A stretch of 30,149 bases of DNA from a virus (IMGVR_UViG_3300033512_000421:1-30149); one strand, 5' to 3'; counted from the stretch's first letter, positions 3,004-30,149 are shown. Program-made: numbers and translations. Notes: a model not told the origin generated them from the sequence alone.

Positions 3004-3909
3004 ATGGCAACACAATTAACTTTAAGAGCAGGTACAAAACCTGTGGAAGGCGGCGCAAACGGTTCATTTGTAATTGATTTGAGCGCAGCGGCAACATCGG
3101 ATTTAACGGTAAATTTTAATCCCACAGGGACGGCAACACTTGGCACAGATTACAGTTTTAGTTTAACGGTCGGTTCAACCACCACGGCTATTACGGGCAA
3201 TAGTTTTGTACTGCCAACGGGAACGACAACCGCGACTTTAAATGTGATTGCAAAAGCCGATAGCGTCACAGACCCGAATGAAACCGTTACAGTTAATTTA
3301 ATGGCAGGAACAGGTTATGACTTAGCAGGTATGAATACGTTGTTTGCGCCTAAAGTTGATTTTACAGTAGGTGTAGGTTCTCGCTCTGTTAGTGTGGGCG
3401 ATTTCAATCATGATGGAAAACTCGATTTAGCCACAGTTAATTGGTCTAGTGAAACACTTTCAGTTTTGTATCGTAACGATGATAACATTGAAAATAAGTT
3501 CCCTAATAATGCTGGATTTGCTAATGAAGTCCATTTCACAACAGGTGCAAAACCTTATTCAGTTAGTGCGGGTGATTTTAACAATGATTCCTGGCTCGAT
3601 TTAGCTGTCGCCAATAAACATAGTAATTCAATTTCAGTATTTATGGGTAGCAGTAAAGGCTTTTCTACTTCTAGCGAATATGCAACGAACTATTCACCCT
3701 ATTCGGTTACTTCAGGGGATTTTAATCAAGATGGTTTTCTTGACATGGTTACAACCAATTCAAGCGGTGGAATTTCTGTGTTATTAAATAAAGGAGGCAA
3801 TGGCTTTACTAAATATGATTATGCTATAACGGGAAGTGTATATCCTTATTCAGTTACTGTGGCTGATCTCAATGATTGCTTTGTAAATAAGTTGACCTTT
3901 TTTCGTTAA
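3004..3909 (+). pseudogene. Calx-beta plus FG-GAP/VCBS repeat surface protein, truncated by the element insertion
   Basis: Calx-beta-like N-terminus (GTATLGTDY, DSVTDPNETVTVNL) and repeats GDFNHDGKLDLA, GDFNNDSWLDLA, GDFNQDGFLDMV. The fourth repeat breaks at VADLN(D) into unrelated CFVNKLTFFR*. Confidence 0.85.
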
Positions 3910-4135
3910 ATCCCATTTTTAACAATTTTCCCATAAGTCTTTGTTTTTATTTATATCTGCCAAAAAAGAAGTTTAATACAGAACTTTTTTAAAAAGTTGA
4001 CCTAGCTATTTTTAGCGAGCAGTCGAACTTGAAAGAAAGTTGACCTTTGTTGTTTTTATTGCAGTCGAACTTGAAAGAAAGTTGACCTTTGTTGTTTTTA
4101 TTGCAGTCGAACTTGAAAGAAAGTTGACCTTTGTT
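3873..4135 (+). repeat. Putative element terminus with five transposase-binding-site-like repeats
   Basis: AAGTTGACCT at 3889, 3994, 4037, 4079 and 4121. The last three lie in a perfect 42-bp tandem unit (starts 4019, 4061, 4103; third copy 33 bp). TG dinucleotides at 3873 and 3877 coincide with the host-gene break. Confidence 0.8.
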
Positions 4136-5025
4136 TATCCTTCTAAACTCGACAAATACAACTGACTATACTGCTCACTCCCTGTTCCATCCGAACCACT
4201 TTCAAATACATGACACGCCGTCACAATAGCCAACGGCTTTGCTCCTTGAATATCAATCAAATCACCGCCAGCGATTCTTAAATCATAGGCAATTTGAGCT
4301 TTCTTGCGGTGTACTAAGCACCTCCCCATGTTTTGCAGTTGCTGAAGGTTTTTATGTGGCACAAATTGCATTTTACGGGTTTTGTCTTGATTACCGTAAA
4401 TCATTTGCCCAGAGTCATCGGTTGAATAGAACGTAGGGATTTCATGACGCTCTAAAAAGCCACTGTTAGTATTGGACATGGCGTTATCAGGCAAGGACAT
4501 AATAGGCTTTTGTTTAAATAAATCCTGCAAGCGCACAAAAGATAGTTTGCCGTTTTTCCACCGCACCACGCCACCTTGTTCTTGTAAGGCTTGGGCAATA
4601 AGCGCGGTTGGGTAGCTGCCAGAGTAACAATAAAACCGATTGATGGCAAAATCAGAATCAATTGTTTTTAAGGTCGCACCCGTGGCTCTATAAATTTCAG
4701 ACAGCGTGATTTTTTCTTTTACGATAGCTGTTTTTCGTACAAAACCCGCAGTATGCACGTTATCTAAAAACGCCATGATTTCAACAGACTTTTGCTCTTT
4801 TGCGCCTTGCGATTGCCGATTGTTAGCTACCTTTGCTTTTACGATGTAAAACTTATCGCCATTTGCAGCAACTATTTTTCCTTCTGTTAATAGTTTTTGA
4901 AGCCCATCATCAATGCGAATAATAGCATGAAGTGTAGCAGGAATTGGGGCTAGGTCATTGCGTAACACAGCAAGCTTTATCAAGTCACCGCGTAGATTTT
5001 TACCGTCAGATAGGGTGATTATCAT
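4135..5025 (-). CDS. Putative baseplate hub/tail protein
   Basis: 296 aa, beta-rich, in the tail module. Size and layout fit gp27/gpD-like hubs (inference). Confidence 0.5.
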   Translation of the reverse strand: MIITLSDGKNLRGDLIKLAVLRNDLAPIPATLHAIIRIDDGLQKLLTEGKIVAANGDKFYIVKAKVANNRQSQGAKEQKSVEIMAFLDNVHTAGFVRKTAIVKEKITLSEIYRATGATLKTIDSDFAINRFYCYSGSYPTALIAQALQEQGGVVRWKNGKLSFVRLQDLFKQKPIMSLPDNAMSNTNSGFLERHEIPTFYSTDDSGQMIYGNQDKTRKMQFVPHKNLQQLQNMGRCLVHRKKAQIAYDLRIAGGDLIDIQGAKPLAIVTACHVFESGSDGTGSEQYSQLYLSSLEG

Positions 5026-5038
5026 TGTATTTTTCCAT

Positions 5039-5062
5039 AAAAAAACCGCTATGACAGCGGCT
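5039..5062 (-). terminator. Intrinsic terminator-like hairpin after the adenine methyltransferase
   Basis: CCGCT-N5-AGCGG stem followed by a T-run on the minus strand. Confidence 0.55.
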
Positions 5063-5569
5063 TTAGTTAGTTTGATTGGTTATTTTAATTAGAAAGCCTT
5101 TGTTACTCATTCGCTCCAGTGCCTGTACGTTTTCAAGCCCCCACGCTATTAACATAGAGCCGCACCCTGCCCCGCTTCCACTGGTAACACCCAAGCCATC
5201 AACAAATTTAATTCGCTGCTTAACGAAGAGGATAGCATCAGCTTTGGTAACGTAATTATGAAACCAGTTACAATCGGTTCGGGCAAAAACCAAGGCTAAA
5301 CCATTGCGGTGATGGTGCATTTTTTCAAGCCATTGCTCGGTATGCTTGCCATACGGCGGGTTTAGCCATACCCGACCAAACCATTCTGAAATTAGACCAT
5401 CTCTAAAAATATCGTAATGCTGCTTTGCAGGAATCCACGCTACACCGCCAGTTGGTGCAGCAGGGTCTAAGTCAAACTCAATCCCTAACTGGTCAAATAT
5501 CCAGTGCGGCGTGTACCATTCGATAGATTTGTTAACTACACTGTCATGTGTGAATCCGTTAGCCTTCAA
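5063..5569 (-). CDS. Phage DNA N6-adenine methyltransferase
   Basis: EWYTP, FDLDPA, W.GRVWLNPPYG (NPPY catalytic motif), ARTD..WF and RIKF. Confidence 0.9.
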   Translation of the reverse strand: MKANGFTHDSVVNKSIEWYTPHWIFDQLGIEFDLDPAAPTGGVAWIPAKQHYDIFRDGLISEWFGRVWLNPPYGKHTEQWLEKMHHHRNGLALVFARTDCNWFHNYVTKADAILFVKQRIKFVDGLGVTSGSGAGCGSMLIAWGLENVQALERMSNKGFLIKITNQTN

Positions 5570-5980
5570 TCAAACTGTCCTTACTACTTGAAAAAAGGCT
5601 TTAACAGGCATTTCTGACTCGTATTGCGTTATATCACTTATCACCTCAGCAGCAGAACGTCCGTAGGGGTCAATGCCCATGCCGCGACTTGCTTCAAGCT
5701 GTAACGCATTTTCGCGTTCTATATATAATAAGAATAAGGGGCGGATAATAGTCCATTCTGACCAGCTAATTTCAGTTAGCTCATCAATGGGTGGGTAAGG
5801 TATAGGCGGGTCAGGCGCGGGGTCGGGAATCGGAATTGCTAAATGCGCTTCTAAATCCGCATATCCCGCGTAAAAATTAATCGCAGCAAGGCACTGGGCT
5901 AAAATTACAGTCCCGTCAAGCAATGTGCCGACTGGACGCTCATTAGCAAAGCGAGCAACTAATTCAGTTATTGCGACCAT
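5570..5980 (-). CDS. Conserved virion morphogenesis protein, function unknown
   Basis: Tightly coupled downstream of the tube gene in a late operon. No catalytic motif recognised. Confidence 0.5.
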   Translation of the reverse strand: MVAITELVARFANERPVGTLLDGTVILAQCLAAINFYAGYADLEAHLAIPIPDPAPDPPIPYPPIDELTEISWSEWTIIRPLFLLYIERENALQLEASRGMGIDPYGRSAAEVISDITQYESEMPVKAFFQVVRTV

Positions 5981-5982
5981 TT

Positions 5983-6480
5983 TTAGATGGTAGGTGAGTT
6001 GCCTGGGATGGTTTCACCAAAGTAATGGTAAAACATCGTTCCACTAAACGTTAAAACTTGACTGCGGTTTTCCCAGTCTGTATCGGGGGTATCAATTTGA
6101 ACAAAACAATCTTTGATGCGCTTGCCTTGAATGAACTTGCTGGGTACACCGTGATAGATTTTAGCGTTAAAAAAACCGCCTTTAGCGATTAAATCAACCA
6201 ATAGCTTATCAGCACTACCCGCCATTGTTTCATAAAATGAAATCGGCGATTGCTGATTAACCTTAACCTGTTGTTGCTCCCATTGCCCACTTCCTAAAGG
6301 CATGGGGATTTCTATCTCGCCTTGAGCCGAAAGAACGGGCCACGGACATTGCTTAGTTAGCAAGTGCATACTCTCAAAACCTTCAATTTCAATCGTGTAA
6401 TCAGAACTGATGGCTTTTCGACCCATATCAGTGATTTTGTCGTAAAAACCTTTTAAATAACTACCATTATTTGTTGCCAT
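5983..6480 (-). CDS. Tail tube/baseplate protein, P1 BplB-like
   Basis: 165 aa. The pattern YLKG.Y....G.KAISSDY.I.IEG.E...ET..G...DC....D..D...E...V.......Y.YF parallels P1 BplB as recalled. Confidence 0.75.
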   Translation of the reverse strand: MATNNGSYLKGFYDKITDMGRKAISSDYTIEIEGFESMHLLTKQCPWPVLSAQGEIEIPMPLGSGQWEQQQVKVNQQSPISFYETMAGSADKLLVDLIAKGGFFNAKIYHGVPSKFIQGKRIKDCFVQIDTPDTDWENRSQVLTFSGTMFYHYFGETIPGNSPTI

Positions 6481-6578: not shown

Positions 6579-6630
6579 TTGACGTGTGACAGTCACAGAG
6601 TGTATTCTATATCTACTGTGACAGTCACAG
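6579..6630 (+). promoter_or_regulatory. Sigma70-type promoter with two palindromic operators TGTGACAGTCACA
   Basis: TTGACG (6579-6584), 18-bp spacer, TATTCT (6603-6608). Identical 13-bp palindromes at 6585-6597 and 6617-6629. AGGAG RBS at 6648. Confidence 0.8.
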
Positions 6631-6660: not shown

Positions 6661-8052
6661 ATGAGTAAAAATAAAAAAGTGAAAAAGGCGATGAAAAAAG
6701 CAATGTCTGGGTTATTAGCTGCTTTTCCTGATAAAAACGAGCAGGATTTAGTTGACAATAAGGTTTATGAAAATGAAAAATACAAAGGGTTGGATTTCCC
6801 TGTTCTGCACACGGTAGAAGCGGATGTGGCGCAAACCCATTATTTTGCTATCAGAAAAGACCCTGCAAAACCGATTAGTTCCGCTGTGGATTGTTGCTTT
6901 ATCAATTGTATTCAGTTTTACGATTTAGGCTCACGCAGACTAATGGCGATTAATGGCTGTTTTGGTGAAAGCTATGAAAATTCGGTGGATATTTTTAATA
7001 AATTCATTTTGGAAAACCAGTTTACTGAAACGGGCATCGGAATCAAATTAGGTAACTTGAACGGTTTTTTAAATCTACAGTGTTGCATAAAAGAGATAAA
7101 TAAGCGGTATGCACAACCCGATGGCTTTGCTTTTTTAGAGGATTACGCAAGAGCTGGAACACTCAAAGATAACGCGCATTTAGACAGTTCGCGCCGCGCT
7201 TTTTGCATATTTGAGCTTTCGGTTATTGAGTATTATAAAAAGCATAACAAAGTGGTAGGGACATTCAAAAGACGTAGAAGCAACGACTCACTTTTTGCAC
7301 AATACGAAGTTACTATGATAGATATATCGCTGGAGGAGTTTAAAGAAAGCGGACTTTTAGAAGAATATCAGAGCAAACACAATAATAGCAATCATCGGTT
7401 TGCTGAAAACGGGTGGCAAAAAACCTGGATTCCCAATGTTAAGTATGACGCGCACTTGAAACTACATCCTGTTTTTAATTTTACCGAAGAGGATGCGCTT
7501 AGAAACAGTGTTCTTGGGTACACAAAACAAAAGGCAGTGGTCAACAAAGAGGGATTAATAACCTTTGAGAAATTGAGGTATTCAGTTCCACAAGATGCTG
7601 ACTTTAGCCGCACAAACCCAACCCCTGTTTATATATGCAATATAGGGAATGGGTTGTTAGCTGTTTTTTCAGTGGTAAACGAGCAATTTATTTGCTATGC
7701 CACTGTATCAAAAGCTGCTACGCTAATGGCTTCAAAATACGAAGCAATCAAAGCCGTAGTAGCAGTAAGTGGCGCGTACAGAGCAATTTGTAAGCAATTT
7801 GAGAAAATCGCCTTGCCGATTAATGAAAAAGTGTTAAAAGACTTGGTAGAGCAAGGGCTAACTAATGAGATTGTAGCAACCATTCTTGCAAACAATCCTG
7901 ATGTAAAAACAGATGGCGGCTCTGATAAGAACGGGCGTAGATGGCTCTATTTTTGCATGAACGCAAAGGATATATTATGGCAACTCCAGCTTGCGAAAGA
8001 AAAAAATCCTCCCGTAAACGGCGGTCTCACAACGGGTTGTTTAGAGCTGTAG
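6661..8052 (+). CDS. DDE transposase/integrase-like protein: catalytic core plus Mu-C-like domain, apparently inactive and lacking an N-terminal DNA-binding domain
   Basis: VEAD55, FYDLGSRRL (D..SR motif of rve cores), KLG131NLNGFLNL at the DNG-like position, KDNAHLD175SS at the K...E position, Y..KHN..NH, and VNKEGLITFEKLRYSVP. Confidence 0.7.
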   Translation: MSKNKKVKKAMKKAMSGLLAAFPDKNEQDLVDNKVYENEKYKGLDFPVLHTVEADVAQTHYFAIRKDPAKPISSAVDCCFINCIQFYDLGSRRLMAINGCFGESYENSVDIFNKFILENQFTETGIGIKLGNLNGFLNLQCCIKEINKRYAQPDGFAFLEDYARAGTLKDNAHLDSSRRAFCIFELSVIEYYKKHNKVVGTFKRRRSNDSLFAQYEVTMIDISLEEFKESGLLEEYQSKHNNSNHRFAENGWQKTWIPNVKYDAHLKLHPVFNFTEEDALRNSVLGYTKQKAVVNKEGLITFEKLRYSVPQDADFSRTNPTPVYICNIGNGLLAVFSVVNEQFICYATVSKAATLMASKYEAIKAVVAVSGAYRAICKQFEKIALPINEKVLKDLVEQGLTNEIVATILANNPDVKTDGGSDKNGRRWLYFCMNAKDILWQLQLAKEKNPPVNGGLTTGCLEL

Positions 8053-8165
8053 AAGTTTATGTTCATTCAGACGATATGGAAGAACTGCGTGAATTTGAAC
8101 GTAAGATGCAGCAAAAGTGGCTAGTGCAGTCGCAACCCAGCAACAGCCTTGACAACAACATTTAA
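7977..8165 (+). CDS. Small basic DNA-binding protein, candidate autorepressor
   Basis: AAGGA RBS before ATG 7977. MATPACERKKSSRKRR..NGLFRAVEVYVHSDD fits small phage ribbon-helix-type regulators. Confidence 0.55.
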   Translation: MATPACERKKSSRKRRSHNGLFRAVEVYVHSDDMEELREFERKMQQKWLVQSQPSNSLDNNI

Positions 8166-8430
8166 CCCCTTAATCACGCCATTGATGCGCTCCACAATGG
8201 CGTTTTGGGTTTTTGCCTCATAGTCTTTGTATTGCCGCCAATTATCAAATGCCTTACTTTTAAACACCTTTTGTGCCGTGCTTACTGGCATCGCAAGGGC
8301 TTGGTCAAGCGGGGTGTTAAAATACAGGCTTAAATTAACTGCCTCATTTAGCAACGATTCCGATAAAGTCTCGCGCTGTTCTCGATAAGAGCTTTGAAAC
8401 TGGAAATCGCGCTGGAGGTAAACTGCCATC
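8121..8430 (-). CDS. Tail assembly chaperone C-terminal ORF, possibly expressed by frameshift from 8344..9096
   Basis: Overlaps the upstream ORF in the +1 frame. NLSLYFNTPLDQALAMPVS resembles GT-type chaperone extensions. True start uncertain. Confidence 0.55.
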
Positions 8431-9096
8431 CATCTCCTTGGGTAACGTGATAATGCCGTTATCATCAAAATCAATACTAAACAAATGCTGTAGCCGTGCT
8501 TGATGGATTCTGTATGCGATAAACAAGTTTTCAAAAGCACTTTCAGGGTAAGCAAGAAAGGTTTTTATACGACTTAGCAACCAGTCATCTAGCTCTTCAT
8601 TTGAATTAAAACTGTTTTCAACATCCCCTTTTATTGCCAATTGCGCTGCCATTGAGCCGATTAACCAGTGATTGCGTCCTGTTAGAACTTGCCCCTCCAA
8701 TCGCTCAATAGATTCTGCTAAACAGCCCGTTAAATGCCCTAAAACCCATTCATCATCGGCAATTTGACCTAGCTCTATCTGACTAAAAGAGGCGGATAAT
8801 TCAGCTTCTTTGTTTAAATAATCTAAATAGTTCCCCATACCAAGCGAAAAGTTCGGGTTGTTTTCTTCTAACGTACAGGCAAGGTAATGTGCTACAACAA
8901 ACAGGCGTTCTTGCACAGTCCAGTCGTGCTGACTGGCAACCCCTTTGTTTGTTTTTATGACAAAGCCTAAGAACTTGGTTGTTGCCGCTTCATACAAATG
9001 AACTGGCATGGCGGCTAATTCCAACGATTGCTGAAAAGAAAGCTCTTGCAATTGAAGGGTAAGCCGCTTGGACTGTAAAATCGGAAAATGTCGCAT
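8344..9096 (-). CDS. Putative tail/baseplate assembly chaperone
   Basis: Acidic 250-aa protein in the tail operon, ending LPPARFP... with an overlapping downstream ORF. Confidence 0.5.
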   Translation of the reverse strand: MRHFPILQSKRLTLQLQELSFQQSLELAAMPVHLYEAATTKFLGFVIKTNKGVASQHDWTVQERLFVVAHYLACTLEENNPNFSLGMGNYLDYLNKEAELSASFSQIELGQIADDEWVLGHLTGCLAESIERLEGQVLTGRNHWLIGSMAAQLAIKGDVENSFNSNEELDDWLLSRIKTFLAYPESAFENLFIAYRIHQARLQHLFSIDFDDNGIITLPKEMDGSLPPARFPVSKLLSRTARDFIGIVAK

Positions 9097-9098
9097 AA

Positions 9099-9950
9099 TT
9101 AATTATTAATAATGACTTTAGATGTGGTATTGCCACTTGTTGCGGGGCTTGTTGAATCAGTTGTTGCAGCAGGTTTTGATCCTTTGTAGGCTTGCCAGTC
9201 TGCACGGTCTATGGCGGTTAAGGTCGATAGTGACAAAGGGATAGACATTTCAACGTAATTGCCACCACTGTCTATCGGCGAGGTTAATGGGTAGCCAATG
9301 GATTCAATAACCAGTGGCGAAAAGGTGCGGTTTTTGTATTTTAGGGCAACCATAACAGGGGATTTTGACGGCAACAACACATCAACTGCATCCTCAATGC
9401 CATTGGCACTAATTGCTCTGCCGACCAATGTGCTATTACCGGCTAATTCGACTGGTAATGCCCATGCCATCAATTGATTGATAGGCGTTTCAACTTCTTG
9501 GGTCGCATTGCGCCATGCCCGAAACAGCACGGTGATTTGAATTTTAGCACCCGCCGTGCCACTAAAGACCTGCGTTGAATTGAGTTTGGTGATACCAGTG
9601 CGTCCTTCAAATTGTTTCAGAAAATCGGTTGATTTTTGTGAGGTTGAATCGCTTATCACGCCCTTGCCATTTAGCGCGTCCACAACCGGCTGTAACGCAC
9701 CGCTTTGTAACATGGCAAAGAGCATAGGGGCTTTCGATTCCACGCCAGATGACTCAAAAGGGGATTGCCAGTTTAGTGCAATATCAAGGTTTCCTTCGAT
9801 AACGGGGCATTTAACCGTTACATTTTCATCAACTCTTTCGCCCTTGCTGTTGACTTGATAGATTGAAGCGATTAAGTGCGGCGAAAGACCGTCCCACAGC
9901 GAAGATAAGGCAGGTTTTTTGATGGTAATATCTTGCTCTGAGAAGGACAT
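9099..9950 (-). CDS. Putative baseplate/tail-tube initiator protein
   Basis: W.SPFE, QVFSG, I..LFRAW......EVE.PI..L..WALP and PLVIES...P motifs fit gp48-like tube-fold baseplate proteins. Confidence 0.55.
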   Translation of the reverse strand: MSFSEQDITIKKPALSSLWDGLSPHLIASIYQVNSKGERVDENVTVKCPVIEGNLDIALNWQSPFESSGVESKAPMLFAMLQSGALQPVVDALNGKGVISDSTSQKSTDFLKQFEGRTGITKLNSTQVFSGTAGAKIQITVLFRAWRNATQEVETPINQLMAWALPVELAGNSTLVGRAISANGIEDAVDVLLPSKSPVMVALKYKNRTFSPLVIESIGYPLTSPIDSGGNYVEMSIPLSLSTLTAIDRADWQAYKGSKPAATTDSTSPATSGNTTSKVIINN

Positions 9951-9953
9951 GGC

Positions 9954-10643
9954 TTACTTGTTTAACCCTGATTTAACACGCATCCGCATTGACTTGGCTC
10001 TTTTCATCATTGCTCCTGCGCTATGGCTTTTTTTCTGAGCTTTGCGGATGGCTGCTTTTTGCGCCCCTGATAAGCGTACCGTGCCGCTTATGCGTTTGTT
10101 GATTCTGACTTTTTTGCCATTGTGAACTGCGAAACGTTTTTTATAAACAGCATCGAAAATCCCGTTGTCATCCTCAGTTTCAAACCCAAAACTGTCAATA
10201 TCATCGGCTGCCTCGTCATCACTTGGAAGCGATTCAATCAGCAAATCCCGAATACGATTTGCTGTTTCCTCATCCCATTCGTTAAATAACGATACAGCAT
10301 CGCTTTCATCTGCACCGTGTCGAACAATATAATCCAAGGCAAAATTTGAAACAATATCAAAAGCATCTGCTTCGTCATCGTCAACCTCACCATTTTTGTT
10401 GTCATCAACGATACCGACCAACAAAGCAAATAAACGGTCAGATTGTGTTTCACCCTCGCCTAAGTCGATGTCAGAATCTGCCCATTGCTGCACTGCGGCG
10501 GCGGCTTTAATTTTAAGGTCTGTCACACCGTAATTGGCAGCCCCATCAAGAACAGGCTTGCTTTTTTTGTCGGTATCGCAACCATCAAGAATCGGTTGTT
10601 TGGCATACCGACTCGGGTCTGTTAATTTATCGTGTATATCCAT
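9954..10643 (-). CDS. Prohead core/scaffold-like protein (T4 gp68-like charge pattern)
   Basis: Very acidic N-terminal region and basic C-terminus RLSGAQKAAIRKAQKK...KRAKSMRMR..SGL, reminiscent of T4 gp68. Confidence 0.6.
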   Translation of the reverse strand: MDIHDKLTDPSRYAKQPILDGCDTDKKSKPVLDGAANYGVTDLKIKAAAAVQQWADSDIDLGEGETQSDRLFALLVGIVDDNKNGEVDDDEADAFDIVSNFALDYIVRHGADESDAVSLFNEWDEETANRIRDLLIESLPSDDEAADDIDSFGFETEDDNGIFDAVYKKRFAVHNGKKVRINKRISGTVRLSGAQKAAIRKAQKKSHSAGAMMKRAKSMRMRVKSGLNK

Positions 10644-10645
10644 TG

Positions 10646-12286
10646 TTAAATCACCAATGTTTGAGTGCAGTAAATTTGCCGTGTTGTTCCAACAAAGCAG
10701 GGCCAGTAATCGACAACAATTGCATCAATCAGCGTCCCATGAGGCATAACACGGTATTCAAAAAAATCTTTGCTAAATGAGGTCTCTTTAGGCGGTACAA
10801 CCCAGTCAGCGGCGCGTAAATCGGCTCGCATTTGATGCAAAAACTCACTCATTTCGGAGACTGCCACATCAATTGGTTTCTGCGCTAAATCTTTACTGCG
10901 CCGCGTAATGCGGTCATCAATATCAACTGACATATCAATAACCGCCGTGAGTTTTTTCAAGCTGTTATCGACCAACGCCCCTGTCAACGAATCAAAGAAG
11001 ACATAACGCTGTCCACCCGTGTAAGTTTCGCTGATAACGGGGTTGATTTTTGCTCGTGCTAAGTCATTTTTATCTTGTCCGGATAACTGGACAACTTGCG
11101 TTACAGCGCGGCGGTTTAGTGGAAAATCTTTACCCGCCACTGGATAATTTTTAGGCGCATATCCCCGTGCATTTTTTACCGCATTGCGTGCGCAGGCATA
11201 GGCAATATTCAGGGTCGCTGTGCCTAAAAACCCCTTGCCGTTTACGCCTGTGGGGTCTTGTGATTTTAACGGTGTCCAATATGACCATACCAAGTGAGAG
11301 CTATTAAAATTGCCACCGATATTAAGCTGCTCATAAAAAGCAATTGCCGCTTCTTTGCTTAACCCACCATACACATCAAACGGCATTGGCTTGTTAGTTT
11401 CATACGCCAGTTGAATAAATTGTGCTAATAGGGCTGGGGACTGTGTGCCGCCGGACGAAATGTAACCAAAATTAAACGGCGTAGTTTGTAATGCAGTTCG
11501 GGCGGCAATGTAATCGGCTGTCGTATAGCCCGTCCCCCCTTCGTCAAAGCAAACCAGCACCGGTGAACTTGCCCAATTCGGCAAGCCCGTTTCGTTATAA
11601 CCGTAAGCAGGCGAATTGGCGGCAATTTCGGTAATCGAATCCCATGTATAAACTTCAACGGCATCGGTTTGATTGGCGACTAAATTGGACAAATAGTTGG
11701 TTTGCTGGTAATCATCCAAACTGTCAGGGTTTAACGAGCCGGTAAAATCAAACAGCGGTAAATTATCTTTGTCTTTAATGCGTAAATTAATCTTGTCATT
11801 CGCAACTGACATACCGCCGACACGTTTTTCTTCAACGTGAATTTCACATTTGATGCCATCGTTAAAGCACTCTAAGTGCTTGATAGCAATTAAAAAAGGC
11901 GTTGTCGGTAATGTGTCGGTTACTGACCAAACAATCGGGTCTGAGGTCGTTGTGCCTAGCCGAGCTACCGCATATTTAATCACCGCTGCACTGGTAATTA
12001 AGCGTTGCACAATGGCTTCATACGCGCCGTTGTTTAATGCCTCAACGATATGCACCCACGCTTCATTCAGCATAGACACGCGCATCGCTTCGCCCTTGCC
12101 AATTTTTGCCTGATAATTGCCCTTATTGACTTTGAAAGGCTTGTCAATGCGTCCGCGTGTTAAGCGGCACATCGTGGCAAATTGCTGGTCGTAATTATCC
12201 GCTGTGGGGATTTCAGAGTTATCGCGTAAGGGGTTTAATTGCACCCCCGATTCCGCGTTAAGTTGTCGTGTAAAAGAAGCAGCCAT
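10646..12286 (-). CDS. Contractile tail sheath protein (P1 gp22-like)
   Basis: 546 aa. N-terminal SGVQ...RGRIDKPF, PVAG, LARAKINPV and a C-terminal 'YWPCFVGTTRQI' strand. Adjacent to the capsid gene as in P1. Confidence 0.8.
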   Translation of the reverse strand: MAASFTRQLNAESGVQLNPLRDNSEIPTADNYDQQFATMCRLTRGRIDKPFKVNKGNYQAKIGKGEAMRVSMLNEAWVHIVEALNNGAYEAIVQRLITSAAVIKYAVARLGTTTSDPIVWSVTDTLPTTPFLIAIKHLECFNDGIKCEIHVEEKRVGGMSVANDKINLRIKDKDNLPLFDFTGSLNPDSLDDYQQTNYLSNLVANQTDAVEVYTWDSITEIAANSPAYGYNETGLPNWASSPVLVCFDEGGTGYTTADYIAARTALQTTPFNFGYISSGGTQSPALLAQFIQLAYETNKPMPFDVYGGLSKEAAIAFYEQLNIGGNFNSSHLVWSYWTPLKSQDPTGVNGKGFLGTATLNIAYACARNAVKNARGYAPKNYPVAGKDFPLNRRAVTQVVQLSGQDKNDLARAKINPVISETYTGGQRYVFFDSLTGALVDNSLKKLTAVIDMSVDIDDRITRRSKDLAQKPIDVAVSEMSEFLHQMRADLRAADWVVPPKETSFSKDFFEYRVMPHGTLIDAIVVDYWPCFVGTTRQIYCTQTLVI

Positions 12287-12288
12287 GA

Positions 12289-12702
12289 TTAACCACCTTT
12301 GGCTTTTTTGCCAGTTGTTGTCTCATTCGCAACAGGTTCTGTGGGTTCAGTAACAGGTTCTGTGGGTTCAGTAACAGGCGTATCGACTGTCACATTAGGC
12401 ACACCCGCGTCAATAATTACCAGTTCAGCGTGCTTGTGATTTTCAGCAATGCTTTCTAGGTCAGAAACCATACGGTGCATATCGCTTAAGCTGTTTACCG
12501 TTACCGTTGCTGTACAATTTTTTAAATCGTGCAGCGGTTTTAAATGGAATTTATCAGGCAAAACCAAGGAAAACATTGCGCGATTGGTTACAGACACCGA
12601 CAAAGGAAAGTCATTTTGTTGAAATTCTTTTGTCACTGTGTCGTTGGCATCAATACCCGTTACAGAGGGCGCACCAACACCGAATTTTACGGTTCTAGTC
12701 AT
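12289..12702 (-). CDS. Small virion-associated protein with PVTEPTE repeats
   Basis: Lies between the capsid and sheath genes. 21-bp tandem repeat at 12331-12378. Confidence 0.55.
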   Translation of the reverse strand: MTRTVKFGVGAPSVTGIDANDTVTKEFQQNDFPLSVSVTNRAMFSLVLPDKFHLKPLHDLKNCTATVTVNSLSDMHRMVSDLESIAENHKHAELVIIDAGVPNVTVDTPVTEPTEPVTEPTEPVANETTTGKKAKGG

Positions 12703-12704
12703 GA

Positions 12705-15379: not shown

Positions 15380-15786
15380 ACACCTACCGTTTCAAATGAA
15401 TGGTACATTGAAATATCAGCACCAGGATTAGCGGCCTTCTCATCTATGAGTTCTGATAATGATTTGGCTATTTTGACCTGATTGCCGAACATTTTAGGAT
15501 AAAGTGTTTCGTCCCATCCGGTCAGCGAACAAATAACGTTTCGCTCCCAAGATGACGGTCTCGTAACGCCTTCAGAAAAACGGTCACAAACACTTTCAAG
15601 CATCGTTGTCACCAGCGGTTTAAAATCATCGCGTTTTTTGTTGTAACCTTTTTTCATTTCAGGCGTATTACAACCATAATCTTGAACGCACAAAGCATAA
15701 GCCAATGCTTCCAAGTATTGAAAGCTTGACTCCGATAAATTTAAGGTAACAGTTACTTTTTTATCACTGATTTGACTCATCATCAC
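15376..15786 (-). CDS. Hypothetical protein
   Basis: Coupled to the Rha-fusion stop codon and flanked by 15-bp direct repeats. Confidence 0.6.
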   Translation of the reverse strand: MMMSQISDKKVTVTLNLSESSFQYLEALAYALCVQDYGCNTPEMKKGYNKKRDDFKPLVTTMLESVCDRFSEGVTRPSSWERNVICSLTGWDETLYPKMFGNQVKIAKSLSELIDEKAANPGADISMYHSFETVGV

Positions 15787-16760: not shown

Positions 16761-16803
16761 TTCTGACTCCTTACGGTTTCTTTTCAAGGAAGCCTCCGAA
16801 GAG

Positions 16804-17026: not shown

Positions 17027-17037
17027 GCGGTTGTTGA

Positions 17038-20668: not shown

Positions 20669-20672
20669 TTTC

Positions 20673-21650
20673 TTACCTCTGTAACTCTATAAATGCCCTG
20701 ATAAATTCAGCCGCAACTTGCGGCACGATGGCATTGCCATAGCCTTTCAACCGCATTACCCGCGCTTCTTGCGTTTCGTTGGGATTTGTCGGTGCGCTAC
20801 TATCGCTGCTGTACACCATTCCTTTGGGTAGCCCATTAACCAGCGGCTTAATGCTGGGTTCAATTGCCCTGTACTTACCGTCTCGGCAGTATAGCCAGTC
20901 TGGGTTATCCCATTCACAGGTACTTGGTCTTTTAAATTGGCGCAGCCACCCTGTGAACTTGAAAGGGCTTGGTCTGAGCGAATTGGTAGATTGTCCATTG
21001 CGTTGGGCGTTCCCCAGCCTGTCATTGTTGTTGCAATAACCGATAATTCGATGGATTTTCCAATTTTTATCCTGCGCTGAATACAAGGGTCTGTCCATTT
21101 CCCTCTGTCTCTGTTGTCGCTGGATATTGGCGTTGGAAAACCTGTTTTTGGCAACCCAATACAATCTTTGTCTTTGATGGAATGAGTTGACGCTGTGTGC
21201 GCCCAATACACAGTACCCAACGGCGTAGTTTTCTGCTTCCATTGCTGCCTGTAAATCATCGAGCCATCCGTGCCTAATCGCTGCTTCAACTTGTTCACCA
21301 AAGAGAGTGTCAGGTCGGCACTGCTTAACAAGTTCAAGGAAGTGGGGCAATAAGTGCCTTTCGTCTGCTTTGCCTTGCTGTTTTCCTGCGGTGCTAAAGG
21401 GCTGACAAGGCAAGCTGACTGTCCAGACGGGTTTATCATCTTGCCAGTTTGCAAGCCTGAGTGACCTTGACCAACCACCAATACCCGCGAAGAAGTGGTG
21501 TTGGGTAAATCCATAAAGGTCGCTTGCTTGTACGTTAATGATTGAGCGTTCATCTACTATTCCATTGGCTATCAGGCCTTGTTTGATTAATTCGCGTAGC
21601 CATGCGGCGGCGTTGGGGTCAAATTCGTTGTAATAAGCGGTCATCATCAA
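20673..21650 (-). CDS. DNA (cytosine-5) methyltransferase, alpha-type polypeptide
   Basis: FFAGIGGW (motif I), LPCQPFS (IV), GEQV (VI), HQRQRLYWV (VIII) and LKGYGNAIVPQVA (X). Motif IX is absent in this frame. Confidence 0.9.
   Translation of the reverse strand: MMMTAYYNEFDPNAAAWLRELIKQGLIANGIVDERSIINVQASDLYGFTQHHFFAGIGGWSRSLRLANWQDDKPVWTVSLPCQPFSTAGKQQGKADERHLLPHFLELVKQCRPDTLFGEQVEAAIRHGWLDDLQAAMEAENYAVGYCVLGAHSVNSFHQRQRLYWVAKNRFSNANIQRQQRQREMDRPLYSAQDKNWKIHRIIGYCNNNDRLGNAQRNGQSTNSLRPSPFKFTGWLRQFKRPSTCEWDNPDWLYCRDGKYRAIEPSIKPLVNGLPKGMVYSSDSSAPTNPNETQEARVMRLKGYGNAIVPQVAAEFIRAFIELQR
20756..21553 (-). CDS. Overprinted alternative-frame ORF: putative beta polypeptide of the C5 methyltransferase
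   Basis: 265 open codons inside the MTase gene, with repeats GFPTP/GWGTP and motif IX-like GQLNPALSRWLMGYPKEW. Start uncertain. Confidence 0.7.
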   Translation of the reverse strand: MNAQSLTYKQATFMDLPNTTSSRVLVVGQGHSGLQTGKMINPSGQSACLVSPLAPQENSKAKQTKGTYCPTSLNLLSSADLTLSLVNKLKQRLGTDGSMIYRQQWKQKTTPLGTVYWAHTASTHSIKDKDCIGLPKTGFPTPISSDNRDRGKWTDPCIQRRIKIGKSIELSVIATTMTGWGTPNAMDNLPIRSDQALSSSQGGCANLKDQVPVNGITQTGYTAETVSTGQLNPALSRWLMGYPKEWCTAAIVAHRQIPTKRKKRG

Positions 21651-22498
21651 CTCATAAACGTATCTAATTGCACAAATGACATCGTGACTTCGCTTAATGC
21701 CTGTTCACTGCGTGATAAGCTTAAAGACATATTGCCAGTTCGATATTTGCCCACACTTTTATAGCCATTACCCTTGATAACGCCATGAATTACGGTGATT
21801 TTAATGGCATATTGCGCGGGTAATCCCACCGTGCCATCAGCACTGGCACAAGCACTACCGTGTTTTTCAAACCACGTTTTAATAAACCCCGCTGAATTGT
21901 CTAGGGTGGTTAGGGTTAATTCAATAGGGTCTGCTGAATTGACTAAATCAACATGAGCTGCGCCAATTTGTTTTTTTTCACCGCTAATTGTGATGGGCGA
22001 AAAGTCAATGTTATAAGCGAACATATTGAATTTTTCTGATTGGTCGCCGCCCAACTCACTTTCGACTTGCAACATCCACAGGTTTTTGCGACACCATGAG
22101 TTACCACGTTGTTTGTTATAAATTTCAAGTGCTGCTTGTGGGCTTATCCCACCCAGCATAGAGGTCGAAGTATTGAAATAAGCCGCGTTGCCACTGCCTC
22201 CACCGATACCAAACGCATCCGCGATTTTAAACCCCGCGCCGATGGCATCAATAAAATTACCGTTTTGAATGGAGTCTAGCATTCCACCTGCGGTATCCAG
22301 CAAGCCCGTGTATTTATTAACCGCGTTTGTAATGCTTGATGGGATATAACGCTCTGCAATTTGTGCGACATTGCTTACCAGCGGATTATTTAAAACATCC
22401 CCCATCGCGTCACCGACCACACTGCCTAACGCATCACCTAACATTCCACCAAACCCCGATGACTTTAGGCTTTTTTGGATATTGTTAAACAAACTCAT
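21647..22498 (-). CDS. Tube-fold baseplate/tail protein with a Gly-rich N-terminus
   Basis: C-terminal ELTLTTLD..G.IKTWF.......DGTVGLP..Y...ITV...EVTMSFVQ fits tail-tube-like folds. Confidence 0.6.
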   Translation of the reverse strand: MSLFNNIQKSLKSSGFGGMLGDALGSVVGDAMGDVLNNPLVSNVAQIAERYIPSSITNAVNKYTGLLDTAGGMLDSIQNGNFIDAIGAGFKIADAFGIGGGSGNAAYFNTSTSMLGGISPQAALEIYNKQRGNSWCRKNLWMLQVESELGGDQSEKFNMFAYNIDFSPITISGEKKQIGAAHVDLVNSADPIELTLTTLDNSAGFIKTWFEKHGSACASADGTVGLPAQYAIKITVIHGVIKGNGYKSVGKYRTGNMSLSLSRSEQALSEVTMSFVQLDTFMS

Positions 22499-22690
22499 TT
22501 AACATTCCTCTGGGTAAAAAGGTTCAATTTCTGCTTGAGTAAAAACCTGTTGCGTTCCATCATCTAAAGCGCACAAATAACCTTTTTTTACTTTCCTGAT
22601 AATAATTACTTTTCCACGACTGTGATAAAAACTATTTTTATCACAAACATAAACACGTCTACCGCTGTAATACTCACTTGATGATGTCAT
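22499..22690 (-). CDS. Small hypothetical protein (SH3-like)
   Basis: ATGA overlap with the portal stop codon and abuts the next gene. Confidence 0.5.
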   Translation of the reverse strand: MTSSSEYYSGRRVYVCDKNSFYHSRGKVIIIRKVKKGYLCALDDGTQQVFTQAEIEPFYPEEC

Positions 22691-24198
22691 TCCTCATCTC
22701 CTCCGCCATCGACTGGGGGCTTTACATCCACCATTTTTGCGTACAAAGCCGCCTCCTCCTCTTCAAGCATCATTTGCTTAGATAAAAACATGGTCATTTG
22801 TTCTTTATCCCAGCCTAAATCTTTTGCCATTTGCATCGCCTGAATCAGCAACATACCGCCATTCATTGTGTCGGCTTTAATCTTGCTTTGTTCGGCATCA
22901 AAGGCAGAAATAGAACTGTAAAAATTGACATTGACTGAACGCTGTTTTTTTGGAAAAACGATTCCGTATTTTAAAAACGTGTGAACATCAATAAGGGATT
23001 GATAAAAATCATGTGCCGATTGGCGGATAATGCGTGACTTTTCGGCGACTTGGGCTGAGGTGCGTGAAATACCACCATCGCCAAAAATAGCACTCATTTG
23101 GTCGGCAAACCCTAGATTTGATAAATCCGCTCCTAATCCCCCCGCAACTAGCCGTGCGTGTAATAACACGTCTTCAACGTTAATGGTGGCACTACGCGAA
23201 GAGCTTAACGGCGTGATGTTGGCAATTTGTTTTTCGCCATTGATGGGAAAAATATGCCGAATCAACCCTAAAATGGGACTGCCGTTAGTCAGCGCGTCAT
23301 CAACGACTTTCTTGGTTTTTGTCAGCATTTGCACAACAGATTCCAAAGAACGCTTTTGCTGTTCTTTAGTCATGTTTTCCATATTCAACGTCCAGTAAGC
23401 CTCATCCAGTGAGTCACGAATGCGCTGCCCTGTAATACCTGATAAAGCTGCTACTAAGTTTTCCCAGTCTTTTTCGACAGGGTACAAAAAAGAGCCACCA
23501 ACCATACTGGGCATAATGGGCTGTTTTGCTAAGTCGTTTTCGGTGATTGCTATTCGCATCGACTTCTGCACAATAGACGGCTGAGGTGTCCATTGAGTGC
23601 GGTGCATTTTAAACCGCCCTAATTGCGTTACATCTAGCCTATCATAGATGTTTCTACCCGAATAAACCTGATAACCCACCGTGCGCCCCGCTTTTTCATA
23701 CGGTTGCACTAAGGCAGGTAAAAATAATTCGTCAGTGGTTAAGTCAATAATGCCCTGTTTATCGGCTGAAAAAATCCTAACGTAAGAATCCCCTTGTTCT
23801 GCCGCTGTATAGCTGCTTGTATAAGCCACTTTATTGAAAAGTTCGGTTAAATCATCCGCTATTTCTTCGGCTATTTTGGCTAATTTTGGGTCTTTTTGCG
23901 CGGCGGCTGATTTTTCTAAATAAACCATTTGCCCTGTTTGCGGATCGCCTCCCAATGCAGCGGTACACAACACTTTAAGCCCCGAAGAAATAATGGAAGT
24001 CGCCCCCATTGTTTGCCATTTTTCATAAATGATTTCGCGTTGCCGCGCGGCTTTGCCTCCTGTTCCCAGCAATGTAGAAACTGTTGTTGAGCCTAACCCG
24101 TATTCATAGCCTAAAGTCGGTGTTATTTGCTCTGCGGGGGCTATATTGGCTTCGCGCCATGTTTTCTGCGAGACTCCGAGTTGTTTGAAAAATGACAT
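22687..24198 (-). CDS. Portal protein (P1 Prt/T4 gp20-like)
   Basis: 503 aa with R..IYEKWQTM, GDSYVRI, GGSFLYPV..W..L, IEDV-like NVEDV and LG.D.S.LGF. First gene after a late promoter. Confidence 0.8.
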   Translation of the reverse strand: MSFFKQLGVSQKTWREANIAPAEQITPTLGYEYGLGSTTVSTLLGTGGKAARQREIIYEKWQTMGATSIISSGLKVLCTAALGGDPQTGQMVYLEKSAAAQKDPKLAKIAEEIADDLTELFNKVAYTSSYTAAEQGDSYVRIFSADKQGIIDLTTDELFLPALVQPYEKAGRTVGYQVYSGRNIYDRLDVTQLGRFKMHRTQWTPQPSIVQKSMRIAITENDLAKQPIMPSMVGGSFLYPVEKDWENLVAALSGITGQRIRDSLDEAYWTLNMENMTKEQQKRSLESVVQMLTKTKKVVDDALTNGSPILGLIRHIFPINGEKQIANITPLSSSRSATINVEDVLLHARLVAGGLGADLSNLGFADQMSAIFGDGGISRTSAQVAEKSRIIRQSAHDFYQSLIDVHTFLKYGIVFPKKQRSVNVNFYSSISAFDAEQSKIKADTMNGGMLLIQAMQMAKDLGWDKEQMTMFLSKQMMLEEEEAALYAKMVDVKPPVDGGGDEE

Positions 24199-26405: not shown

Positions 26406-26519
26406 ATGTATTACTTATTGATAGCGGTAGGTTTTTTTGTCATTCTGTGGTTAATAACCCTTTTAAAAAGAAAGATAATGTCAAAGCGCAAGCCGCGTTT
26501 TTATGACCATCTTGATTAA
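26406..26519 (+). CDS. Small membrane peptide (37 aa, not in the ORF track)
   Basis: MYYLLIAVGFFVILWLITLL-KRKIMSKRKPRFYDHLD, with an AAGG RBS. Confidence 0.55.
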   Translation: MYYLLIAVGFFVILWLITLLKRKIMSKRKPRFYDHLD

Positions 26520-27019
26520 TACAAATGCAAATCATCCCGCCGATTACATAAATACCGTTGCGTGAACGGCGGGATATTTGAAGTGGTTTCAATTCCAATA
26601 ATTTCATAAGCTAACTTAATCGTATCCCCACCAACTGAATACAGAATCAACAAATACAGGATGTCGTTTTTCTTCACTTCAAAACCGCCATCCTCTGGCA
26701 GTAAAATTTCAGGTTCAATCAAAAACGTAAATACATCACTATCACCACTGCTCGCATCTTGCCTGTCAGTCATCAATGACGGCGCAAAATTACCATCGGC
26801 TCGCAGCGCGTAAGCATTACCCAGTGGCTCAAAAGTCACATCCTCTTCATCCTCACTGGAAATAACCCCCAAGCCGCCAATTGTAGGCAAACCCATGAGC
26901 GTTGAATCGCTGGGGCGGGTGACTACTTTACGAATCATTTGCGCGTTAAACGTATTCGGATGATTTAACACCACGTTACGCGCTAGTTTATTGATTTGAA
27001 TGGGGACTTGGTGCAGCAT
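26516..27019 (-). CDS. Putative head-closure/neck protein
   Basis: 167 aa, beta-rich, ending KKNDILY...YEIIGIET...RYLC like head-closure folds. Late-operon context. Confidence 0.45.
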   Translation of the reverse strand: MLHQVPIQINKLARNVVLNHPNTFNAQMIRKVVTRPSDSTLMGLPTIGGLGVISSEDEEDVTFEPLGNAYALRADGNFAPSLMTDRQDASSGDSDVFTFLIEPEILLPEDGGFEVKKNDILYLLILYSVGGDTIKLAYEIIGIETTSNIPPFTQRYLCNRRDDLHLY

Positions 27020-27022
27020 GAC

Positions 27023-28093
27023 TTAATTCGCATTGATTTGAGCAATCATTGATGCTTCGATTTCAGGCGGTAATCCTAATTTTTTGATGGCATCAATGGC
27101 ATTGTTTTTTAAAACTTTCTGCTGAGTTGGATTTCTTGGTGGCTTTTTAGGCTTATTCACTTTTTTAACCGCATCCGCCGCCGCTTTACGTTCTTTAGCC
27201 CGTTGCGCCTCAGCTTCCCGTTCAGCAGTTGTTTTGATTTTGTTGGCTTGTTTGCGCTGTTTGACTTGCTGTTCAGCTTCTTCTTGGGTGGCGCGTAAAT
27301 TAGCCTTAGCACTATTGTTTTTGATAGCCTCTTTAATCGCTCTGGCTAAAAAATTGGTCACGGTCATAGAGGACTCAATTTCTGCCATCGTGCGTAAAAT
27401 ATGCTTACACGCAACCCCCGCTAACCCAGGATTGCGGATTTTAGGATACCCGTACTCATCCCTGCCAAACGGTTTGCCAATATTAAAACCGCCAATGGTC
27501 GCAATATAGCGAAACCAAAACCGAAACCGCTTACAGTCGCAATTGAAGCGCAAAGGCTCACGACACAACTTTAACGCGGCTTGTTTAACATCGGTTTCAG
27601 CACCCGATGCAGCAAGGGGAAACGTAATAAACTCGACTTGAACGTGATGCCGCTTTACATCCGAATCAGGGCCTGCGTTGGTAATAAATCGCACCACGTT
27701 ATTATTAAAAGCAACGGGCATTGCCATAAAAATTTCACGGTTAGCGCGTTTTAAGTCGGTTTCCTTACCTGACACTATCATGTCTGCTAAATTAATGACT
27801 TGCCGTGCGGTTATACCACCATTAGCTAACAGCTTTTTACGCTCTTTCAGGCGATTAATATTTTCACGAAAGACAACTAAATCTTCGTTGGTAATCGCTC
27901 GTTTTTTACCGCCCAAAGTCGTTTCTAAGGCACGATTAGCATCATAGTTACCGTGTATATCATTCGGATTTAAAATGACCGACTGCGGGGATTTTTCAGC
28001 GTTTTTGCGTTGGTCAGCATCGGCTTTCTGAATGCGTTTTGCCTCAGCATCCGCACCGCGTAATTTACCTATCCAGTCATTATCTTGCGCCAT
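27023..28093 (-). CDS. SWIM-type zinc-finger morphogenesis protein of P1-like phages
   Basis: CDCKRFRFWFRY...PKIRNPGLAGVACKH (CxC...CxH). Confidence 0.65.
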   Translation of the reverse strand: MAQDNDWIGKLRGADAEAKRIQKADADQRKNAEKSPQSVILNPNDIHGNYDANRALETTLGGKKRAITNEDLVVFRENINRLKERKKLLANGGITARQVINLADMIVSGKETDLKRANREIFMAMPVAFNNNVVRFITNAGPDSDVKRHHVQVEFITFPLAASGAETDVKQAALKLCREPLRFNCDCKRFRFWFRYIATIGGFNIGKPFGRDEYGYPKIRNPGLAGVACKHILRTMAEIESSMTVTNFLARAIKEAIKNNSAKANLRATQEEAEQQVKQRKQANKIKTTAEREAEAQRAKERKAAADAVKKVNKPKKPPRNPTQQKVLKNNAIDAIKKLGLPPEIEASMIAQINAN

Positions 28094-28096
28094 TAA

Positions 28097-28432
28097 TTAA
28101 TCAATCCATGTCGGTTGATAGTTATCACGGTATTCAGGATTACTTTCAAAGCCTGTTTTGCGCTTAATCGCGTAAAGTTGGGCGGGGGTTGGCAAGGCGA
28201 TTCGTTTTTGAGTTAATTCTTGGTCAACACTATCAACACCCGCCGCCGCCATCACTGCTAAAAATTCATGGCGATTACCGTAAACGCGCTCTGAAATCAG
28301 CGTAGCATCCCATGCCTCATCAACAGTAATGTCGTAAAAAATAGCAGGTTGCCACGGCTTAACGCGCTCTGAAAACTTGCGAATTTCTTTGTAAAAATCC
28401 TTAGCCGCTTGGGTATTGACATCAAGACTCAT
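28097..28432 (-). CDS. Baseplate wedge protein with a LysM-like motif
   Basis: YDITVDE..D..LISERVYG......V...AG.D.....L....I.LPT fits gpX/gp53-type wedge proteins. Confidence 0.65.
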   Translation of the reverse strand: MSLDVNTQAAKDFYKEIRKFSERVKPWQPAIFYDITVDEAWDATLISERVYGNRHEFLAVMAAAGVDSVDQELTQKRIALPTPAQLYAIKRKTGFESNPEYRDNYQPTWID

Positions 28433-28434
28433 GG

Positions 28435-29139
28435 CTAAAGCACAGACAAGGTAATCGGGTAGCCGTGCGGGTCATTGGGGTCGCCGTTTGTACCTTTTCC
28501 ATCATTGGGTTCGTTGTCTTTTGGTGCAGAAAATAACGGCACTTGTGCTTTTAAATTCAAGCGAATCGCTAAAATAGCGATGTTTTTTGATTCGGAATCA
28601 ATAGCTTGCGCAGGGGCTTCGGGGGATTCAATTTGTACTGAAAAGTTTAAATCTTGCCCTGCAAATTTATAATTGGCAAAAAACCCTTGGTTGCCGATGG
28701 AATCCATAAATAAAATGAATTGCGCGGCTATCGACTTTGCAGTCGGTTCATCAGCTGTAAAAATAGCCACTTGTGCCGCCAAATCCCCCGCAACGGTTCG
28801 CAACATGAACGCCCTTTCTTTTGGGTCATTTGGCAACATAACGGTTTGCGGTTCACCTAATTGCCGTGTGTAATCCCTACCCGTAGGCATGAAATCACGT
28901 CCAAAAGCGACAATAATCACGGGCAGTTTTGCTGGCATAGTCGCCGCGCCGTCTGTATCGTTGCGTTGCCATGCCGCCAACATTTCTGTCGCTGTATCAA
29001 TCATTCGACTGGGACACCACACAATAGCTTTACCGACTTCACGCGCCACATAGCTGTGCATTGGTTTGGTGGTTGGTACAAGTTGATTAAAAAACCGAAT
29101 CATGTACTGCGAAAAGCCCACTTTGACTGGCTCAAACAT
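28435..29139 (-). CDS. Putative tail terminator/completion protein
   Basis: LPVIIVAFGR motif, size and position in the late operon. Confidence 0.5.
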   Translation of the reverse strand: MFEPVKVGFSQYMIRFFNQLVPTTKPMHSYVAREVGKAIVWCPSRMIDTATEMLAAWQRNDTDGAATMPAKLPVIIVAFGRDFMPTGRDYTRQLGEPQTVMLPNDPKERAFMLRTVAGDLAAQVAIFTADEPTAKSIAAQFILFMDSIGNQGFFANYKFAGQDLNFSVQIESPEAPAQAIDSESKNIAILAIRLNLKAQVPLFSAPKDNEPNDGKGTNGDPNDPHGYPITLSVL

Positions 29140-29960
29140 TACCGCCCCCTTAATTGACTAATCAGCTCGACTGTATCAACAATATCCGCTTTTTCATTGG
29201 CGTTTAAATCCTGAAAACGCGGTAAATGCGCGGCATTTTTGAATGCGTCCACATCACGGCTTAATTGACTCGCACGGTCAGTTGATAATAACGCGGGTAA
29301 ACTAAACGATGTGTCATCTAAAATCGGCTTGCCCGTTGCCAACAGCTCAATCATGGCTTCGTTATCCGCTTGACAGCGATTTAACGCCTCGGTCACTTGG
29401 TCAAGCAACGCATCTTTTTGAGCTAATAAAGCTTGCCAAAAGGCTTCGTTTTCACTGTGTGCAGCAACAATAATGTCATCAAATATCACATTAGCAGAGT
29501 CAAGTAAGTAGCCACGGTTATTGTTAAAATTAGGCATTAATACATAGTCAAACCCATAAAAATCATAGCCATTGCCTACAGGGTCGATTGCAGAGCTAAA
29601 ACCACCGATTTTTTGCCCGTACATTAAAGCCGCTTTTTTGCCGCTGTCTGTCTCTAAAAATTCGCTTTGGTGTTCAATATCCCCATTGGAATAAGCTTTT
29701 AAAAATGTCGTGATAAGTGCAGGTTCAATCTCTGTGTATTTACCACTTATCACCACACTTTCAGCAGGATTCATACCCGCTAAACGGCGCGGGGCATGAC
29801 CGTAATAACCGACCATGCCGCGCGTTTTTATTCTTTCTTGCGCAGCCCCGCCATTAATCGCGTCACATAATTTTTTGATGTCAAAATTACGCTCTTGACC
29901 AAGATGCTTGCGACCTCGGTCTTTCACGTTGTAACGAATTAATGGCGGTTGCTGTGTCAT
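29139..29960 (-). CDS. Prohead (head-processing) protease, P1 Pro-like
   Basis: RGRKHLG..R, GYYGH (His), GGFSSAI (Ser), GFDYV..PNF (Asp), followed by an acidic coiled-coil tail. Confidence 0.85.
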   Translation of the reverse strand: MTQQPPLIRYNVKDRGRKHLGQERNFDIKKLCDAINGGAAQERIKTRGMVGYYGHAPRRLAGMNPAESVVISGKYTEIEPALITTFLKAYSNGDIEHQSEFLETDSGKKAALMYGQKIGGFSSAIDPVGNGYDFYGFDYVLMPNFNNNRGYLLDSANVIFDDIIVAAHSENEAFWQALLAQKDALLDQVTEALNRCQADNEAMIELLATGKPILDDTSFSLPALLSTDRASQLSRDVDAFKNAAHLPRFQDLNANEKADIVDTVELISQLRGR

Positions 29961-29968
29961 GATTTTTC

Positions 29969-30148
29969 CTAAACCAAGGTTTCACTGGTTAGCGTTGCCC
30001 GTGTTGCGACATCTGCAAAAACCGAAGCAATCTGATTAACTTGATATTTGACCGCGTAAGGCAAAACCACTTCTTTTGCCGCCACTTTCCCCACAAATTC
30101 AGCGCAAAATGCGCCCAATTCGTTAAGGGAATCAGTCGATTGCATAAG
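29969..30148 (-). CDS. 3' end of a hypothetical phage gene (partial)
   Basis: Open frame ...LMQSTDSLNELGAFCAEF...TLTSETLV* ends just before the protease RBS. Confidence 0.6.
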   Translation of the reverse strand, partial: LMQSTDSLNELGAFCAEFVGKVAAKEVVLPYAVKYQVNQIASVFADVATRATLTSETLV

Positions 30149-30149
30149 C

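Follow-up and report, generated by a model that had tools for sequence, protein, structure and literature searches.

The 30,149-nt virus record IMGVR_UViG_3300033512_000421 (the window) carries, from position 3873 to its last letter, an element that combines features of two phage types. By its terminal sequence and site spacing, position 3873 is a DDE-transposon end, and more narrowly a right end as found in one family of Mu-like phages. Inside this end are P1-type virion genes, a catalytically dead transposase core, a fusion protein with a predicted end-binding region and, further in, another copy of the end site; outside is an interrupted host gene. The reading favored here, with a probability of roughly one half, is a long-standing hybrid of Mu-like and P1-type phages that was inserted in the host gene by DDE transposition. 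The record ends at 30149 inside the element, and a left end would lie beyond the contig.

The element begins TGATTGCT. The nearest counterpart is a complete Mu-like prophage of 38,162 bp with a 6-bp duplication, TTTGAT (G433:C13:10602-48763, loci L247-L249; the G433 prophage), both ends of which begin alike. These ends start with TGATTGCTTTG and TGATTGCTATT, and the window at 3873 starts with TGATTGCTTTG; the first 11 nt of the window end equal the G433 left end and the first 8 nt equal its right end. Five exact copies of the site AAGTTGACCT are at 3889, 3994, 4037, 4079 and 4121, the innermost three forming a 42-bp tandem unit. When one mismatch or less is allowed there are 7 matches (1.99 expected), a count that 1 of 100 shuffles attains. 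A longer form of the site has 4 exact copies and 6 matches in total against 1.17 expected (0/100 shuffles). The sixth copy is inside the element, 13 kb from the end. The site variant common to end and interior is present in none of 280 other loci; Mu-like relatives have AATAGTTGGACG.

The first and second sites are 105 nt apart, a spacing that fits family right ends, and for this reason the end is assigned as a right end. Among 80 family transposon loci examined, right-end spacing is 100–104 nt in 32 of the 33 with two right-end sites, and left-end spacing is 33–35 nt in 24/24. The right-end gaps of the G433 prophage are 102 and 54 nt, and the stop of its last gene is about 20 nt from the innermost site. 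The late genes of the window, too, are transcribed toward the end and finish next to the innermost site, with the stop codon of the tail gene (4135–4137) only 4 nt away; the initial annotation, which had the array reaching this stop, was correct. It had also described a DDE-transposon-type end without a tyrosine or serine integrase. The terminal sequence and the site spacing refine that description to a Mu-like family right end, and no integrase family is present among 32 scanned open reading frames (ORFs). A generalized end pattern, fitted with the window included, matches only Mu-like ends in 276 loci and only 3873 in the window; of the two starts proposed earlier, 3873 and 3877, the first stands. 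A terminal TG with an array of transposase sites is thus found at one end. An Rfam search gave no match, and a scan for site arrays gave 16 stretches, none with a window homologue. A scan of viral records for the far end (predicted duplication plus end) gave 19 stretches, which are treated as chance, and 0/19 of these records carry the transposase.

The host ORF at 3004–3909 has four FG-GAP stretches and breaks in the last one, as expected from the earlier description of a gene cut mid-repeat where TG and the five sites begin. Its homologues (aligned residues 4–290) sit in frames of 633–714 amino acids (aa). G001 is a Methylobacter bin; of 401 genomes in its order, 34 have homologues with the same N-terminus in longer frames, and on this basis the host is probably a member of the Methylococcales. 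A 267-nt contig of sequencing run X3 covers positions 3793–4059 with 0 differences, so that the junction is spanned. Run X1 holds more of the window and is its likelier source, with X3 also possible. There is no loose end at 3873 among the 24 of 92 loose-end rows listed for runs X1–X4. Misassembly of the junction and an iteron nature of the repeats are both unlikely. The target duplication of Mu is 5 bp, whereas the transposase family found here makes 6-bp duplications; the size of about 5 bp first suggested is replaced by 6 bp, from the G433 prophage.

The G433 prophage has genes for a repressor, a transposase, a B-type ATPase (phrog_296), terminase, portal and tail. Its 717-aa transposase is of the same family as the two transposase-derived ORFs of the window and has no PHROG match. 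Judged from their translations, the surrounding genes are probably methanol-dehydrogenase-like. A full-length family member is present in seven viral loci, and the gene context is Mu-like in 7/7. Many 4–5 kb transposons (L159–L238) have a transposase of the same family, an AAA ATPase and conserved ends TG...AAATANTGTAACG; the transposases are unnamed by Pfam in the three members scanned. These stand-alone transposons, with an IS21/Tn7-like layout, have the same right end as the window, i.e., TG, a site and a second site about 103 nt further in. They differ in being mostly 4–5 kb and in the site sequence, and the two members read over their whole length have no virion genes.

Other repeats are present in the Mu-like phages. 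An end-type site is directly behind the endolysin gene, mid-genome, in three of them (L248:3410–3421, L151:5938–5949 and L153:2856–2912). The one in L153 is an inverted pair, and such sites are possibly central synapsis or regulatory sites. Next to the left end, on its inner side and past the repressor region, are tandem arrays of 14–18 nt units (L149:2439–2579, L150:259–314, L152:1–180, the 3' end of L158 and L247:10736–10830). Their sequence differs in each phage, and they are perhaps repressor operators or an enhancer.

The PHROGs families of the window are P1-type portal, capsid, sheath, tube, tail and wedge, in place of Mu-type portal, capsid and late genes such as phrog_145 and phrog_1328 in the G433 prophage. 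The head and tail genes of a P1-type myovirus are in conserved order, and none of the virion genes looks broken. By sequence identity and gene order, the virion genes belong to the branch of P1-like phages with Xanthomonas phage Rb1 (GYRb1, PQ569993) and Acinetobacter phage ABMM1 (OQ471969), which cluster together beside D6 and Punavirus (PMC13478112). Rb1 is the closest named phage, with 39.6% identity in the capsid, 51% in the sheath, 45% in the portal and a largely similar gene order. P1 itself has a homologous virion module and is far more distant, with a capsid identity of 23%. The closest relatives of the tail protein are 77–78% identical. Among the 32 ORFs there is no RepA, ParAB or Cre; a RepA/ParAB replicon is thus absent from the 26 kb, and the DNA is joined to a host gene.

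Tail homologues were found in 196 viral stretches, of which 80 were taken, and integrases were searched for in the 50 longest records. A tyrosine integrase is present in 21/50, 19 of them above the cut-off, and in 3/3 near-complete records; the Rb1/ABMM1 branch thus normally integrates by site-specific recombination. ABMM1 has a tyrosine integrase and forms prophages (PMC10345192). For Rb1, its paper (PMC13478112) reports no predicted integrase, and the record carries an annotated serine recombinase and CI/CII. This recombinase is 632 aa (PQ569993.1:70495–72393, L002) and lies beside tail genes; Rb1 is likely temperate. The contrast drawn at first with plasmid-borne P1 was therefore misplaced, and of the overall initial reading the DDE-transposon end with P1-type genes inside is retained.

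Table 1. Features of the window, with positions counted from its first letter
Feature	Position	Strand	Remarks
Host Calx-beta/FG-GAP gene, 5' part	3004..3872	+	cut in fourth FG-GAP stretch; frame continues to 3909
TCTCAA, predicted 6-bp target duplication	3867..3872	+	based on the 6-bp duplication of the G433 prophage; only one copy seen
Mu-type right end	3873..4003	+	terminal TGATTGCT, first site 3889, second site 105 nt further in
Three 42-bp tandem units	4019..4144	+	each an imperfect inverted pair GTCGAA...AGTTGAC; last adjoins the tail gene's stop
P1-type tail protein (phrog_1390)	4135..5025	-	intact to natural stop; usual downstream spike gene absent
Dam methyltransferase, phrog_5551 protein, tail tube	5063..6480	-
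Promoter-like site and two palindromic TGTGACAGTCACA boxes	6579..6630	+	in front of dead core
MuA/TnsB-type core and C-terminus (dead core)	6661..8052	+	D306 conserved, D382G and E426D changes; lacks the end-binding region
P1-type head/tail block: PmgG-like, sheath, major capsid and neighbors	8121..14411	-	sheath 10646-12286, major capsid 12705-14411
Rha domain fused to transposase residues 140-279	15783..16787	-	predicted end-binding region 15807-16232
Promoter-like site of Rha fusion and internal end-site copy	16997..17064	-	promoter-like site 17026-16997; end-site copy 17040-17064
Tape measure/transglycosylase, Dcm methyltransferase, phrog_24337 protein, portal	17486..24198	-
P1-type tail, baseplate wedge and prohead-protease-like genes	26516..29960	-	element runs off contig

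Two transposase-derived ORFs had been noted inside the element. Both are real, and neither can be a working transposase, one being a catalytically dead core and the other an end-binding piece. The first (the dead core of Table 1) aligns to residues 295–696 of a 709-aa protein, P0118, with 64% identity. The P0118 family has 91 representatives, in which D306, D382 and E426 are invariant. D-D-E is retained in 41 of the 43 matches that cover all three positions; the window copy has D-G-D and is without two of the three catalytic residues, in the 26 kb seen. The family has no name from Pfam, PHROGs or a sequence search of solved structures. A structure model of P0118 (predicted local distance difference test score, pLDDT, 81) matches TnsB, MuA and IstA with E values of 1e-12 to 1e-8; a first model from 5 sequences (pLDDT 53) was not used.

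Changes in the dead core are unevenly distributed. Altered columns make up 12/32 of those conserved in the catalytic region and 0/15 of those in the C-terminus (Fisher p 0.005). Simulated neutral change of equal size left only 3 of 400 frames open, and the frame in the window is open. This clustering of losses, together with the simulation, points to selection for a non-catalytic role. The dead core thus stays open, apparently under operators of its own, for which the palindromic boxes are candidates; promoter-like sites near it number 6 where 10.4 are expected by chance, i.e., there is no excess. An Atlas search with the dead core gave no usable match.

The second ORF is a fusion of a Rha domain to a part of the transposase, with 40% identity between its C-terminal half and P0118 residues 140–279. 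The internal end-site copy is just upstream of the promoter-like site of the fusion. Three other clusters (P0177, P0189 and P0194) contain comparable antirepressor fusions, or the N-terminal region as a protein of its own, and all of these end in GV. In MuA and TnsB the N-terminal region binds the ends, and from the corresponding position we infer that the transposase part of the fusion binds the element ends. The contigs of P0118, P0177 and the other fusions were not found among viral contigs, and the 80 metagenome loci retained from 236 likewise lack that of P0118. P0177 and the tail homologue P0042 are each on a Joint Genome Institute contig of 21,489 nt, possibly the same one. A split of a single transposase gene by one inversion is ruled out, as the genes between the two pieces are ordered as in relatives and the fusion is also found elsewhere.

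Other features of the window are separate from these genes. An LprI-like gene (17113–17580) has a hairpin terminator that adjoins the internal end site. The Dcm gene (20673–21650) has a 265-aa overlapping frame on the same strand (20756–21553). The host DNA at 72–2860 is a group of Rpn/YhgA-like and PD-(D/E)XK genes in which a 154-nt repeat occurs twice, at 1517 and 2707; its high depth and numerous variants in runs X1–X4 suggest multi-copy elements.

Mu and Mu-like phages, for which the name 'Saltoviridae' is cited in PMC5977238, share with the window a TG...CA-type end with several sites, insertion into a gene, a transposase of the MuA/TnsB fold and late genes that run into the right end. 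The window differs in that the virion genes are P1-type, the transposase is split and dead, and no B ATPase is seen in the contig. The Mu-like examples described in the literature examined are about 37 kb. In the literature searched, which lacks most subscription papers, there is neither a phage that transposes and has a P1-type virion nor a dead MuA carried by a phage.

An old hybrid is favored because end and interior share a site variant and because both transposase pieces are old. Both ORFs also derive from the family to which such ends belong, a rare one in the order of G001, and the recurrence of fusions of this type and the unbroken virion genes likewise speak for it. Had a Mu-like phage simply inserted into a P1-like one, TG would adjoin the P1 genes, so recombination or a deletion must have brought the P1-type DNA within the ends. 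In the proposed course of events, the two ends of a Mu-like prophage would have come to flank a P1-type prophage of the Rb1/ABMM1 branch, which took the place of the Mu-like late genes. Near the left end, beyond the contig, there would be an intact transposase of the P0118 kind, together with an AAA ATPase. With the AAGTTGACC sites as its binding sites, this transposase would insert the element and duplicate 6 bp of target (TCTCAA). The Rha fusion is likely to bind the same sites, both at its own promoter and in the end array, and the dead core probably enters and blocks transpososomes. Both are predicted to act as brakes on transposition. That the element is a complete transposable myophage of 70–100 kb, with a P1-type virion, random integration of the MuA/TnsB type and control by a Rha-fused end-binding protein and a dead core, is a more tentative proposal.

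Several observations weigh against the hybrid. A spike gene lies no more than 2.5 kb downstream of the tail gene in 117 of the 118 loci that were usable (in 112 of them within 300 nt), 12 loci having been dropped for lack of downstream DNA; a stricter cut-off had dropped 60/131. It is absent in the window, and hence the module looks cut on the 3873 side. The spike/Dar/baseplate block is not found at this place and may lie beyond the contig. The data contain no intact transposase, ATPase, left end or second duplication copy (the contig ends at 30149), a single insertion site is known, and the generalized end pattern was fitted on a set containing the window. The transposase is in 0/50 related viral records and 0/49 tail-homologue genomes (control, 2/2 detected); likewise, the phage collection has no transposase of this family. 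The window-type capsid is in 0/7 Mu-like records. The transposase family is present in only 2 of the 401 genomes of the G001 order, and these do not overlap with the 5 that have the capsid.

A recent defective chimera would explain part of this and is possible, at a lower probability than the old hybrid. A Mu-like prophage in the FG-GAP gene would have been near an ordinary integrase-type P1-like prophage in which transposase-derived decoys, genes as well as sites, were already present. Matching sites would then have served for a single deletion that removed the Mu body and the distal P1-like arm (spike, baseplate, fibers and integrase) and left an orphan end. The broken tail-spike linkage is well explained by such a deletion, and the integrases of the near-complete relatives and the lack of the transposase in every relative searched are consistent with it. 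Truncated ABMM1-like prophages are on record (PMC10345192), and the internal site right behind the endolysin stop codon in G433, L151 and L153 is a possible deletion point. However, three separate events would be needed, and also a match between the decoy site and the end of the co-resident Mu; the junction, moreover, left the tail gene intact by a margin of 4 nt. In L005, one of the closest relatives, an endolysin gene already separates the tail and spike genes. Recombination by way of a shared endolysin is unsupported, with only 31% identity.

A non-autonomous element is improbable. Here a P1-type prophage with two Mu-type ends and the dead transposase alone would be moved in trans by a co-resident Mu-like prophage, in the manner of mini-Mu. 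The window end is intact, the dead core is the one core seen and P0118 shows that an intact relative exists; however, MuA works best in cis, and about two thirds of a typical 70–97 kb genome lies outside the contig, which leaves room for an intact transposase gene. It is very unlikely that a plasmid-like phage uses the repeats as replication iterons or operators and that the host join is incidental or an assembly error: the identity of the three 42-bp units and the closeness of the internal copy to a promoter would suit this reading, but the terminal sequence and spacing equal those of real transposon ends, the X3 contig spans the junction without differences and no Rep family is among the 32 ORFs.

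If the element is whole, it would show that a Mu-like life cycle can be combined with a P1-type particle of much greater size, and it would be about twice as large as the transposable phages described in the literature examined. Such phages would be candidate movers of large pieces of host DNA in methane-oxidizer mats. Even if it is defective, a transposase family unnamed by Pfam, PHROGs or the structure sequence search powers Mu-like phages that make 6-bp duplications; one phage, moreover, retains a dead core and an end-binding fusion that are predicted to be candidate inhibitors of transposition.

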